In this document: positions 16,781 through 36,220 of the stretch, piece after piece | Numbering within the stretch: position 1 is the stretch's first letter | Layout: each line of letters begins with the position of its first letter | Source: Shigella phage Sf6 | Length of the DNA: 39,043 nucleotides | Sequence record: AF547987 | Direction: 5' to 3' (one strand) | Made by a program: the position numbers and the translations under genes | The notes under the pieces: generated by a model | Seen by the model: the letters and a program-made list of their open reading frames with translations, nothing else | The model's database searches: none | Told to the model about the DNA's origin: nothing

Positions 16781-17938
16781 CTACCTAACCTTCTCATCAA
16801 GCCAATCCGCCCACCACTGCATCATTTCTCTGCGCTTATCGAGATACTGAGCATGGTTGTAAATCCCACGCACAGATCCGCCGTTGGCATGTGCCAGTTG
16901 CACTTCAATAGCGTCAGCAGGCCATTCGTGCTCGTTCATAATCGTGCTGAATTCATGCCTGAATCCGTGACCGCTTTCCAGACCTTCATAGCCGATTTGT
17001 TTGATCACAAGTAGTACAGCGTTCTCGCAAATTGGCTTCTTCTTATCGTTGCGCCCGGCAAAAACAAACTCTGACACTGGTTTAGTGATTGAGCTTAGCG
17101 TAGTGAGAAGTTCAATCACCTGGTCTGACATAGGAACCACATGAATTTTGCGTCCCTTCATCACACTGGCGTCGATAGTGATAATCCTGTTTTCAAAATC
17201 GACGTTCTTCCATTGCATGGAACGAAGCTCTTTCGTTCTTAGGGCTGTGTAGCGTAAAACTTTGGTCGCAATGAGCGATACGATACTTCCTGAAAATGTT
17301 GCAAGTGCTTTGTTGAATGCCGGGATCTGGTCGGCAGGTAAAAATGGGAAGTTTTTCTTGCGGTATCCTTTCATGGCGTCTGCAAGGTCAGGTGCCGGGT
17401 TATATTTAGCCCTTCCGGTGACAATAGCGTAACGGAAAACCTCGCCGCATCTTCTGCGGGCTTTGTTGGCTCGCTCCATTGCACCGCGATCTTCAAATCT
17501 GCGGATTACTTCCAGCAGTTGCATCGGCTCAATATCCTGAATTTCAAGGCCGCCGATGATGGGTAAAATGTCGTCATCAAACATTTTTGCAAGTTCAGTT
17601 GCATAGCCTACTGACCAGACTTGCTTCTTGTGATCGTACCATTCCTTGTAAATCGCACTAAAGGAATTGTTGTTAGACGAAGCCTTTTTCGCCTTTACCG
17701 GATCGATGCCAACCGAGATGTCTTTCCTCGCAGTCCATGCTTTATCCCTTGCCTCCTGCAAAGTCATAAGCGGATATTTTCCGACGGTCAGGATTTTCTC
17801 CTTACCGTCAATCTTGTAGCGAAGCTGCCATACCTTTTTCCCTGACACAGGGACATAAAGGTACAGGCCATTACCATCGAGAAGGCGGTATGGTTTTTCT
17901 TTCGGCTTTGCTGCTTCAATCTGCTTAACGGTGAGCAT
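16781..17938 (-). CDS. int: tyrosine integrase (P4-like family)
   Basis: N-terminus LTVKQIEAAKPKEKPYRL.DG.GLYLYV typical of P4-type integrases; C-terminal catalytic region with HxxR and Y; I chose the ATG at 17938, the track ORF starts at a GTG at 17974. Confidence 0.85.
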   Translation of the reverse strand: MLTVKQIEAAKPKEKPYRLLDGNGLYLYVPVSGKKVWQLRYKIDGKEKILTVGKYPLMTLQEARDKAWTARKDISVGIDPVKAKKASSNNNSFSAIYKEWYDHKKQVWSVGYATELAKMFDDDILPIIGGLEIQDIEPMQLLEVIRRFEDRGAMERANKARRRCGEVFRYAIVTGRAKYNPAPDLADAMKGYRKKNFPFLPADQIPAFNKALATFSGSIVSLIATKVLRYTALRTKELRSMQWKNVDFENRIITIDASVMKGRKIHVVPMSDQVIELLTTLSSITKPVSEFVFAGRNDKKKPICENAVLLVIKQIGYEGLESGHGFRHEFSTIMNEHEWPADAIEVQLAHANGGSVRGIYNHAQYLDKRREMMQWWADWLDEKVR

Positions 17939-18099
17939 GGGTAAAAATCCGGTGGGTAAAATTATTTTATCCACTTTTTACCCGTCATGGAGTGCGGCTG
18001 TCAACGATCTGACGCGAACCATGACGAACTGTGAATCTACGGAAGGCTTGATATTCAGGGGATTTTGCGGACTGGTACGGATGGAGGCGAACTGATAAA

Positions 18100-18117
18100 T
18101 GGTGTCCCCTGCAGACA
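18100..18117 (-). other. attP core candidate (matches a tRNA 3' end including CCA)
   Basis: Minus strand reads CTGCAGGGGACACCA, which is the T-stem 3' strand, acceptor stem, discriminator and CCA of a tRNA (I recall this as tRNA-Arg argW); lies just upstream of int. Confidence 0.55.
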
Positions 18118-18187
18118 TCTACTTGAAGCAGCAGGGGATTGATTGGAATGGTGTTTTTTAGATGTGAGAAATATTTTACCCGCTATT

Positions 18188-18388
18188 TTACCCATTGGCG
18201 CGGCTTAAGAGCTTATTTTTGAATTCACAATGGTCACGATATAACCATCTTGCTCGCCCGTGGATAACTTTGGCTTTAGGCAGGTCGCCGGACTTAATCC
18301 GGTCATAAATGAAGGTTTTACCGAAGCCAGTATCGGCCATGATGAATTTCAAATCAACCAGTGAATCAGGCTGTAGTTCGTGTTGCAT
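18188..18388 (-). CDS. xis: excisionase / AlpA-family DNA-binding protein
   Basis: 66-aa ORF next to attP and int; sequence pattern of AlpA-type HTH proteins. Confidence 0.6.
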   Translation of the reverse strand: MQHELQPDSLVDLKFIMADTGFGKTFIYDRIKSGDLPKAKVIHGRARWLYRDHCEFKNKLLSRANG

Positions 18389-18430
18389 GAGTGCTATCTC
18401 CGAATAGGGAATCGAACCTGCAAATCAGGC

Positions 18431-18453
18431 AATAAAAAACCGCCATCAGGCGG
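18431..18453 (-). terminator. intrinsic terminator in early-left operon, upstream of xis
   Basis: Minus strand hairpin CCGCC-tgat-GGCGG followed by TTTTTTATT. Confidence 0.6.
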
Positions 18454-18496
18454 CTTGGTGTTCTTTCAGTTCTTCAATTCGAATATTGGTTACGTC

Positions 18497-18808
18497 TTAT
18501 TCGATGCGCACTCCTGGTATTTCGCCTTTTGATATTGCTAAGTCATAAATTTGCGCGGCACTATACCCATCTCGCATCCATGAATCTAAGGCGCTAACAG
18601 CCTCGCTACGCTTTTTATCTTCTCTCTCATTTTTGATATCAACGAGGACATCAACGCAATTAAGGCAAATGTGGATTTTGTCCTTACATTCGATCATGGC
18701 GGCTTTACCATGATTTCCGCCACACAGTGAGCATAAATCTTCAGGGTCTGGCTGGTATTTCTGTAACGTTAGAGGGTTGAATGTTGAACAGGTCATAATC
18801 ATCTCCAT
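18497..18808 (-). CDS. hypothetical protein (Cys-rich)
   Basis: 103-aa ORF; an internal ATG at 18796 has a better GGAG RBS; a terminator sits immediately upstream. Confidence 0.45.
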   Translation of the reverse strand: MEMIMTCSTFNPLTLQKYQPDPEDLCSLCGGNHGKAAMIECKDKIHICLNCVDVLVDIKNEREDKKRSEAVSALDSWMRDGYSAAQIYDLAISKGEIPGVRIE

Positions 18809-18832
18809 AAAATAAAACTCGCCGTAGCGAGT
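18809..18832 (-). terminator. intrinsic terminator in early-left operon
   Basis: Minus strand hairpin ACTCGC-tacg-GCGAGT followed by TTTATTTT. Confidence 0.55.
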
Positions 18833-18895
18833 TCAGATAAAAGAAATCCCCGCGAATGCGAGGATTGTTATTCACCTTTGACGTCAAGTTGCAGG

Positions 18896-19198
18896 TTAGC
18901 CATGGTTAACCTCCTGCGGAGTAGCCTTTACAAGCACTGGTGTAAATCCATCTTCATTAAGGTTATGAATATAGACTTCCGTTCTCCTGCGCTCTTCAGC
19001 GTTTAATATGGTTTCTGGATCATAAACCCATACTTTCATTCGACTATTCCATGAAGAAATCGCTTCAGATCTAGTTCGTTTTTCTGGTCCTTGGGCACCA
19101 CATTTGCATGACACATAGCGCATTTTCCCTCTGATACTGAATGAGTATCCGATGTTAAGCACAGTGGAACCACAGAATGGGCAGCGATAGAGATTCAT
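18896..19198 (-). CDS. Lar-family restriction alleviation protein (zinc ribbon)
   Basis: 100-aa ORF with CPFCG...C.CGAQGP...EAISSWN pattern typical of the Lar family. Confidence 0.55.
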   Translation of the reverse strand: MNLYRCPFCGSTVLNIGYSFSIRGKMRYVSCKCGAQGPEKRTRSEAISSWNSRMKVWVYDPETILNAEERRRTEVYIHNLNEDGFTPVLVKATPQEVNHG

Positions 19199-19875
19199 AA
19201 ATCATCCACCTTAGGCGCAGCTGAGACAGCAACATTCCAGAACTCAGAAAACATATTGTATGCACCAGATAGATTGGAAGTGGCATACCCTCCAAGCTCA
19301 CTTCTAATCTGAACGGCTCTCATCATTTCCGGCGTTAACTCCTTCGGCACCATAACCCAACCATCCGGAGTTACCGGAGAGTTGCCATCCAGCGCGTTCA
19401 ACTTGTAAGCCTGGCTTACAGGTTCGGCACTATGAAGCATGGCAGCGCGGCAGGCGTTCCAGCCTTGAACCTTAGCTATTGCCACAACTGCATCGGTAAA
19501 GAACATTCTCGCGGTATCTGGCTCCGGCATTTCATCCGGCACCGCTTGCTGCGGTAACTGTGGTACAGTCAGTGACTCCAATTCAGCGATACGCTTCTCT
19601 GCGGCTTCCAGTTCATCAAGCAGCGCCAAGACGGTAGCCGGATTGGCTGCGGCGATGAATTCAGCATTGGCCTGCTGTTCCATTTGGAAATCTTCATCGA
19701 AACCGCTTTCAGGATGCGCTCCTTCAATTCTGCAAATGGGAATATATCCAGCAGCCTCGCGATGAATTAGTGCATCATCACCATCAAATCGGCCCTCTCC
19801 ATATTCGAGCGACCACACACCACACGTTGCTTTCTCTGCCGCTTCACGCAGTGCCTGATAGTCAATCTTGCTCAT
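19195..19875 (-). CDS. Ead/Ea22-like protein
   Basis: 226-aa ORF, helical; resembles Ead/Ea22 early-left proteins of lambdoid phages; stop overlaps next start. Confidence 0.5.
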   Translation of the reverse strand: MSKIDYQALREAAEKATCGVWSLEYGEGRFDGDDALIHREAAGYIPICRIEGAHPESGFDEDFQMEQQANAEFIAAANPATVLALLDELEAAEKRIAELESLTVPQLPQQAVPDEMPEPDTARMFFTDAVVAIAKVQGWNACRAAMLHSAEPVSQAYKLNALDGNSPVTPDGWVMVPKELTPEMMRAVQIRSELGGYATSNLSGAYNMFSEFWNVAVSAAPKVDDL

Positions 19876-36064: not shown

Positions 36065-36139
36065 GGGTCAGTCGTATAAAGGTCATTACGGAAGGCTGTT
36101 AACCTTCTTATCGTGGTTCGAGTCCACGCTGTCCCGCCA
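36065..36139 (+). tRNA. tRNA-Asn (anticodon GTT), with two stem mismatches
   Basis: Hand-folded cloverleaf: anticodon arm GAAGG-CTGTTAA-CCTTC, T-arm CGTGG-TTCGAGT-CCACG, 3' CCA; T:T mismatches in acceptor (4:69) and D stems. Confidence 0.55.
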
Positions 36140-36144
36140 AACAT

Positions 36145-36220
36145 GCTGGTTTAGCTCCAATGGTAGAGCAGTCGCCTTGTAAGCGAATGGGTAGCGGTTC
36201 AAGTCCGTTAACCAGCACCA
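36145..36220 (+). tRNA. tRNA-Thr (anticodon TGT)
   Basis: Hand-folded 76-nt cloverleaf: perfect 7-bp acceptor stem GCTGGTT/AACCAGC, D stem GCTC/GAGC, anticodon loop CTTGTAA, T-loop TTCAAGT, 3' ACCA. Confidence 0.7.

Follow-up and report, generated by a model that had tools for sequence, protein, structure and literature searches.

Two short stretches resembling the 3' half of a tRNA lie on either side of xis, the excisionase gene of Shigella phage Sf6. What are these two pieces, and were they once a single tRNA homology that was cut in two when xis was acquired? In the window analyzed here, that is, the whole 39,043-nt stretch of sequence record AF547987, both strings occur on the minus strand exactly where a preliminary description of this DNA had placed them: TTGCAGGTTCGATTCC (piece 1) at 18423–18408 and CTGCAGGGGACACCA (piece 2) at 18114–18100. 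By its sequence, the region is the integration–excision module of Sf6, the same module as in KplE1 (CPS-53) and HK620, and xis encodes its recombination directionality factor (RDF). Our analysis indicates that piece 2 is the core of the phage attachment site, attP, which is known biology, and it points to one new element: piece 1 appears to be a selectively maintained copy of the tRNA T arm in the leader of the excisionase gene.

Each piece is single-copy in the window, and dinucleotide shuffles give 0.03 and 0.07 expected chance matches at ≤2 mismatches for piece 1 and piece 2, respectively. Aligned to Escherichia coli argW (GTCCTCTTAGTTAAATGGATATAACGAGCCCCTCCTAAGGGCTAATTGCAGGTTCGATTCCTGCAGGGGACACCA, taken from the VT2phi_272 record and K-12), the tRNA gene that had been suggested as the first to compare, piece 1 corresponds to nt 46–61 and piece 2 to nt 61–75, both with 100% identity. 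Overlapping by 1 nt, the two cover the final 30 nt of argW. Piece 1 does hold the T-stem 5' strand and the T-loop, as had been described, along with two variable-loop bases and the first CC of the T-stem 3' strand, 2 nt that the first reading of the sequence had missed. The 293-nt gap between the pieces contains xis, again as described. ARAGORN finds tRNA genes in the window only at 36065–36220, where two phage genes, tRNA-Asn(GTT) and tRNA-Thr(TGT), lie on the plus strand, and Rfam finds no tRNA in 17000–19500, its scan of that interval at E ≤ 10 giving only sub-threshold chance matches. The two pieces are tRNA fragments and not a gene.

We have virtually no doubt that piece 2 is the attP core, an assignment that is already published. 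Together with the T that follows, it forms the 16-nt core reported for the IntS–TorI module of KplE1, HK620, and Sf6 (PMC2951348, PMC8787464), and the "attP core" annotation in the HK620 record covers exactly these 16 bases. In K-12, attL runs from argW through TTTATCAGTTCG... into intS, and attR runs from torI through ...gtagatgtCTGCAGGGGACACCAT into host DNA. Among 80 IMG/VR loci, at least five unrelated host contexts begin right past CACCA(T), as for a junction. The lysogen junctions examined (K-12 attL and attR, IMG/VR attR, and those of PMC2951348 and PMC8787464) map to piece 2. Prophage junctions at argW with a duplicated core were seen in the relatives K-12 and VT2phi_272 and in IMG/VR loci; for Sf6 itself, they are taken from the literature. 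Identity is lost early at some attR-like junctions, ~120 nt past xis (L091, GGGGACA|atcc; L094; L102; L110; and a GGGG|GCAAT form), which places the crossover within TGCAGGGG(ACA) and suggests integrations at degenerate sites.

The earlier proposal of an att core upstream of the gene for a P4-type integrase also holds. The core lies between xis and int, and the product of the latter, 99% identical to IntS, has the Pfam domains Arm-DNA-bind_3 (P4-type arm-binding), Phage_int_M (central), and Phage_integrase (catalytic). Integrase would exchange strands with argW inside the piece 2 core, whereupon the phage copy would supply the tRNA 3' end, leaving int beside argW at attL and xis at the far end, beside a displaced 15-nt tRNA fragment, at attR. 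Both the core and this post-integration layout are established and already published: attP lies between int and xis in Sf6, HK620, and KplE1, so that the two genes land at opposite prophage ends (PMC8787464, the Kapi1 paper).

Piece 1, in contrast, takes no part in strand exchange and is not the other half of a split core. Its place is on the phage side, ~300 bp away from the core, where it follows a terminator and precedes the ribosome-binding site of xis. The attR used for excision in vitro is 135 bp long and starts inside the 3' end of torI (PMC3509656, methods), which puts piece 1 outside this fragment. In every lysogen examined (K-12, IMG/VR), host DNA is reached from piece 1 only across xis, the P arm with its arm-type sites, and the true core. 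The GenBank record of CUS-3 (CP000711.1; L002 1–16 and L004 1393–1408) nevertheless labels TTGCAGGTTCGATTCC as both "attL core" and "attR core". Piece 1 does recur as a 16-bp direct repeat, once in the argW of attL and once at the far end of the prophage, but recombination at this repeat would not restore argW, the published core is piece 2, and the junction sequences already refute piece 1 as the core, so that we allow this reading practically no chance. The CUS-3 record stops at the TTGCAGGTTCGATTCC repeat, and by taking piece 1 for the att core it leaves out the excisionase gene and the real 16-nt core. Its prophage boundary is almost certainly mis-set, probably with an offset of ~310 bp, and prophage-boundary callers that use the longest flanking direct repeat can err likewise at argW.

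We examined the conservation of piece 1 in TorI relatives of 38–100% identity gathered from genome contigs, assemblies, and phage records. Alignment-based scanning of viral and metagenome contigs yielded no divergent TorI relatives, just the E. coli type at 100% identity; the divergent lineages were reached through genome contigs, look-ups of contigs for individual proteins, and tblastn against phages. In an alignment of 14 xis leaders from ~11 genera, the 13-nt block CAGGTTCGATTCC within piece 1 is at least 85% conserved at all 13 positions, with TTCGATT.C invariant. Both sides of the block are unalignable, and the next conserved element is the Shine–Dalgarno sequence. Lineages that bear the block are Escherichia, Enterobacter, Atlantibacter, Citrobacter, Serratia, two Pantoea, Edwardsiella, Hafnia, Cedecea, and one further lineage, and overall it is present in at least 12 genera. 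Erwinia phage phiEt88 keeps it alongside an RDF of 39% identity, arm-type repeats GCGGGCAT, and P' (int-side) repeats that are GTTAC-like rather than GTTCG. So does L319 (IMGVR_UViG_3300011892_000028, minus strand), in which a leader nearly identical to the Citrobacter/Atlantibacter type runs as far as the ATG and is followed by a very divergent RDF. The block is even repeated: in Erwinia phage Midgardsormr38, the CAGGTTCGATTCCC block stands twice in tandem ahead of xis (L221, ~2140–2200), and an Enterobacter prophage has a partial second copy, CTCGATTCAT (L093, ~2150–2213). As a separate observation on L319, its mosaic joint falls exactly at the start codon, its arm repeats are of the GCGGGCAT type, and its target is still argW.

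Variation within the E. coli type gives a similar picture. Piece 1 is exact in 75 of 80 IMG/VR loci, and the other five carry single substitutions at five different positions, indicating that the sequence is able to mutate. Polymorphism, scored in 70 E. coli-type haplotypes as minor-allele counts summed over sites and divided by length, is 0.31 per site in piece 1 and 0.74–1.73 in the leader around it; within xis, it is 3.22 at third codon positions and 0.02 at first and second positions. The block is ~10-fold less polymorphic than the third codon positions of xis. A central 13 nt conserved across genera between unalignable flanks does not fit a view of piece 1 as neutral debris. These results indicate that purifying selection holds the block identical to the tRNA in many modules that target argW, and we consider it highly probable that piece 1 is under selection while not being a crossover site.

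Was a single tRNA half nonetheless split by xis? The model built on the preliminary description is that an ancestral attP carried a continuous argW 3' half, which xis interrupted, leaving piece 1 as a neutral remainder. The tiling of argW nt 46–75 by the Sf6 pieces is what such a split would leave, and the extent of tRNA identity differs by lineage (TTGCAGG... in E. coli, ...CCTG in Serratia and Pantoea), as expected of real tRNA descent. That piece 1 descends from tRNA sequence is indeed not in doubt: identity is 16/16 in E. coli, and in Serratia it covers 15 contiguous positions, reaching two positions further 3'. However, the phage-side flank of the core tells against complementary halves. 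Left of the crossover, 25 lineages read ...CCCCTGC-N8-9-TTCGATGTn|TGCAGGGGAC, in which TT.GAT and GT are nearly invariant and TTCGAT is T-loop sequence. Because this flank also reads T-loop-like, tRNA positions 53–58 are represented twice, and the family has two overlapping tRNA-derived segments; the tiling looks neat in Sf6 because this phage and its E. coli relatives changed the second T-loop copy to GTAGATGTC. In addition, the 13-nt block is kept across genera with diverged flanks and is duplicated in one phage, its polymorphism in E. coli is low, and no relative was seen with an uninterrupted T-arm-to-CCA attP lacking xis in between. We therefore regard the split as improbable, although an ancient rearrangement may have been the origin of piece 1.

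From its conservation, we infer that piece 1 may be a cis-acting control element for xis expression, and we put the chances of a regulatory role for this gene at about even. Most likely, such an element would be bound by a protein, mimicking the bacterial arm of attB and being recognized by the core-binding part of the integrase, which we favor because the argW core specificity is the one common to all modules with the block. As far as the start of the crossover region, the sequence of the block is that of the bacterial arm of attB, and the block contains both the TorI pentamer GTTCG and the TTCGAT common to the core flank. Integrase is nevertheless only a tentative candidate for the binder, with the odds against it. 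It is unlikelier still that integrase uses this copy of an attB half-site before xis as an operator that gates production of the directionality factor. Such an operator would silence xis both while the phage integrates and in the lysogen, and it would explain why the block retains tRNA identity despite changed RDF and arm-site specificities. Taken as a whole, the account in which this is the Sf6 module, piece 2 is its core, and piece 1 is a selected cis element for xis explains the observations best, and we hold it to be slightly on the probable side of even.

Several observations weigh against this account. About half of the related modules are without the block, indicating that it is dispensable; these are the modules of Klebsiella, Cronobacter, Rahnella, Rouxiella, Mixta, several Pantoea, Tatumella, and Arsenophonus, a Dryocola deletion, EhrS_49, and g341c. 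The genuine phage-side core flank is more variable (TTNGRNGTN) than the block, which would be odd if integrase binding were the sole constraint. The sample is modest, at ~15 independent lineages, and tracking of the block against its target is uninformative because all modules target argW and host T-arms are invariant within the block. For all host types recovered, among them Proteus and the hosts with the GGGAACGCCA acceptor, the T-arm reads (G/A)CAGGTTCGATTCCTG(C/T). In most modules without the block, xis abuts the upstream gene or overlaps it, and one further case looks like a 25-nt deletion. By inspection, presence of the block does not correlate with the core flank sequence or with the upstream terminator. 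In favor of the account, a link of the block to argW is supported by 933W, where the same upstream ORF and terminator precede a wrbA-type module without the block.

If the block is a binding site, the protein might instead be TorI, acting on the GTTCG of the T-loop copy and on a pentamer next to the Shine–Dalgarno sequence and thereby autoregulating xis in the manner of Cox, Apl, and Vis-type RDFs. GTTCG is among the published TorI sites (GTTCG, GATCG, and GTCCG; PMC2951348), and the pentamer that lies 12 nt further downstream reads GTTCG or GTCCG in 4 of 11 lineages, with near-matches in others. This reading does not account for the invariant bases TTCGATT.C, which reach well past the pentamer, nor for L213, which retains TTCGATTCC yet loses the G of GTTCG. 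Moreover, phiEt88 keeps the block even though its own P' repeats form no GTTCG array, and the 12-bp spacing differs from the 10 and 20 bp found in attL. Such an excisionase operator seems to us quite improbable, and so, by very nearly as much, does a role of piece 1 in the mRNA, in which the T-arm UUCC/GGUU would pair with the GGAG Shine–Dalgarno and with AACC before the AUG and dampen xis translation. Single-sequence folds repeatedly pair GGUU..AUUCC with GGAGAU..AACC, and the Shine–Dalgarno pairing probability is 0.64–1.0 in 10 of 11 leaders. Yet the RNAalifold consensus energy is −0.06 kcal/mol with zero compensatory pairs, a slide −1 control pairs better than the hairpin model, and the mean z of leader folding against shuffles is just −0.8. 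The invariant CGA is unpaired in the hairpin model, and the tandem duplication suits a DNA site better. A conserved hairpin that sequesters the Shine–Dalgarno is thus not supported, in a test that has little power because both strands are conserved.

The HK620 record suggests a further possibility, as it places a promoter and a "cII protein" site, TTGCctgatTTGC, over piece 1 (L001 1561–1599, corresponding to window 18432–18394), which would make piece 1 part of a cII-dependent "phage integration" promoter. A lambda-type cII site reads TTGC-N6-TTGC, and the spacing in HK620 is N5 instead. Outside the E. coli lineage the upstream TTGC is missing while the block persists, a sigma-70 scan gives no promoter on the minus strand at piece 1, and a promoter here would also drive xis, the wrong gene for integration; we consider this explanation very improbable. 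Reportedly, Menouni et al. in 2013 tied Rho-dependent termination to torI silencing.

A search of viral contigs for a T-loop followed by a Shine–Dalgarno sequence and an ATG gave at least 122 instances; among the matches listed, 80 lie in real tRNA genes, the RDF-like open reading frames (ORFs) belong to argW modules only, and no other tRNA target was found. Two candidate comparators were rejected. In the Pseudomonas AlpA-like RDFs (F116 group), a convergent integrase abuts the RDF gene, so that they are not comparable, and the Nitrosomonas locus L113 has no integrase nearby. Among the contigs gathered, a Hafnia chromosome (L194, 3001–6201) carries xis, att, and integrase contiguously, followed by a P4-cII-like gene, and looks like two elements in tandem at argW. 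L094 and L111 are contigs of metagenome-assembled genomes labeled Actinomycetes and Parachlamydiaceae that contain this enterobacterial xis module and leader; they are probably mis-binned.

The surroundings of the core have further structure. The GTAGATGTC flank of Sf6, a degraded form of the T-loop-like sequence in other lineages, may be bound by Int. The GT of the flank matches the mirror-image GGTGT across the crossover (from ACACC), as would be expected of symmetric integrase core-type sites. Beyond the flank, the core has an inverted-repeat partner, CCCCTGCA-N16-TGCAGGGG, in which 88% of cells are paired across 24 lineages versus 38–58% in slid controls. Three cells are compensatory and follow acceptor-stem variants, the pairs being CCCCTACA/TGTAGGGG in Rouxiella and, in Edwardsiella and Cedecea, TCCCTG/CAGGGA. 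Where only one side has changed and pairing persists, the result is a U.G or G.U wobble on the xis-sense strand. With its T-loop-like loop and ACACCA tail, the predicted hairpin (CCCCUGCA...UGCAGGGG) appears to resemble an acceptor/T-arm minihelix. The inverted repeat could be a DNA symmetry element at the core or an RNA structure at the end of the xis transcript.

On the two arms, the HK620 record annotates an attP repeat at the position of the P-arm repeats, and a TAAA arm-type motif is published (PMC2951348). The five TorI pentamers, which lie in two blocks, and the −35 box of PintS have the relative positions published for KplE1 attL (PMC2951348). A 46-aa ORF on the minus strand at 18195–18055, the counterpart of HK620 hkaB and Sf6 gene 17, spans the P-arm repeats and the attP core and is probably not a real gene.

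The identity of the module is clear from its near neighbors. The 2.2 kb around both tRNA-like pieces match the Sf6 int record X59553 at 100% and are ~97% identical to HK620, IME10, HK633, and other P22-like coliphages. Sf6 has an IntS-type integrase, a 66-aa TorI-type RDF, a 16-nt core, attP between the RDF gene and int, and five TorI pentamers, that is, the features of a KplE1-type module, and the same recombination module has been stated for HK620, Sf6, and CUS-3 (PMC2951348). Recombination dependent on IntS, TorI, and IHF in vitro was reported with KplE1 and HK620 substrates rather than with the exact Sf6 sequence (PMC2951348, PMC3509656). On the minus strand, the order is an early-left ORF (18808–18497), the terminator, ATTGCCTGAT, piece 1, the Shine–Dalgarno sequence, xis, the arm-type repeats, piece 2, the int promoter region, int, and oac. 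The left edge of the module lies just past the T-run of the terminator, as comparison with 933W and K-12 indicates. In 933W (L007 2340–2460 versus window 18874–18434), the upstream ORF and terminator are common with Sf6 and are followed by its own wrbA-type xis and int, whereas K-12 has another upstream context and joins the Sf6-type sequence at the same point after the terminator. Shiga toxin (Stx) phages carry the Sf6 upstream ORF and terminator with unrelated xis and int straight after the T-run, a sharp module boundary. Coordinates of the individual features are collected in the table.

Table. Features of the Sf6 integration–excision module (window positions) and the basis of each assignment.
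Feature	Position	Strand	Basis
Intrinsic terminator closing the upstream early-left ORF; left boundary of the integration module	18434..18456	-	Terminator scan
Piece 1, TTGCAGGTTCGATTCC = argW nt 46–61, in the xis 5' leader	18408..18423	-	Exact match; comparison
Conserved core of piece 1, CAGGTTCGATTCC = argW nt 49–61 (block letters also GGTTCGATTCC)	18408..18420	-	Leader alignment
ATTCG pentamer abutting the xis Shine–Dalgarno, ATTCGGAGAT	18396..18405	-	GTTCG or GTCCG (published TorI pentamers) there in 4/11 lineages
xis, RDF gene	18188..18388	-	66/66 aa identical to K-12 TorI; PMC3509656
Direct repeats of the P arm, GGGTAAAATAGCGGGTAAAAT (arm-type sites for Int), which overlap the stop codon of xis	18173..18193	-	Kept in all TorI-type modules
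CCCCTGC, left arm of the inverted repeat whose partner is TGCAGGGG of the core	18131..18137 (partner 18113–18106)	-	Pairing count
Phage-side flank of the crossover, GTAGATGTC, putative Int core-type C site, degraded TTCGATGTn	18114..18122	-	25-lineage comparison
Piece 2 + T, 16-nt common core of attP/attB, CTGCAGGGGACACCAT (argW nt 61–75 plus 1)	18099..18114	-	PMC2951348, PMC8787464; HK620 annotation; K-12 attL/attR
P' arm with five TorI pentamers	18005..18092	-	GTTCG 18092–18088, GTCCG 18072–18068, GTTCG 18029–18025, GTTCG 18019–18015, GATCG 18009–18005
int promoter −35 TTGACA (18004–17999) and P' arm-type repeats GGGTAAAAA, GGATAAAAT, TTTTACCC, TTTTTACCC	17939..18004	-	PMC2951348
int, P4-type tyrosine integrase gene	16781..17938	-	381/384 (99%) identical to K-12 IntS

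Piece 2 and the gene order are known biology of Sf6, HK620, and KplE1. For the T-arm copy we found no description: in the literature searched, no paper combines the piece 1 sequence with attP or argW. The KplE1 papers (PMC2951348, PMC3509656) call the torI promoter uncharacterized and do not mention the T-arm copy. The module is well studied, its RDF regulation is still described in that way, and the T-arm copy is one of its conserved elements. Because torI expression alone triggers prophage excision, a cis element upstream of torI would be a sensible experimental target.

Compared with known systems, the Sf6 region is the IntS–TorI module at argW of KplE1 (CPS-53), HK620, and Sf6 described by Panis, Ansaldi, and co-workers (PMC2951348, PMC3509656), with no difference. 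It has the same integrase, RDF, and 16-nt core, the same position of attP between RDF gene and int, and the same five TorI sites; as in KplE1, the P' arm-type sites overlap the int promoter, and K-12 also has piece 1 upstream of torI. Like lambda attP, the site serves a heterobivalent tyrosine integrase through core and arm sites, with an RDF that sets direction. Unlike in lambda, attP lies between xis and int, which sends the two genes to opposite ends of the prophage; the RDF sites belong to the int-side arm (attL), and int is transcribed from an autoregulated promoter of its own (PMC2951348). At K-12 attR, a 15-nt argW fragment identical in sequence to piece 2 is annotated as pawZ; in a lysogen, pawZ is what remains on the host side, whereas these bases form the attP core in the phage genome. 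P2 Cox, 186 Apl, and P4 Vis, RDFs that also act as repressors close to their own genes, are a precedent for an excisionase or integrase site in an RDF leader that serves as an operator, although the conserved bases of piece 1 exceed the RDF pentamer. Finally, as at P4-type attachment sites in tRNA 3' ends, a class of site for which PMC8787464 cites Reiter et al. 1989, the phage carries the 3' end of its target tRNA and integration rebuilds the gene; what sets Sf6 apart from these sites is a second, non-recombining partial copy of the T arm ~300 bp away.

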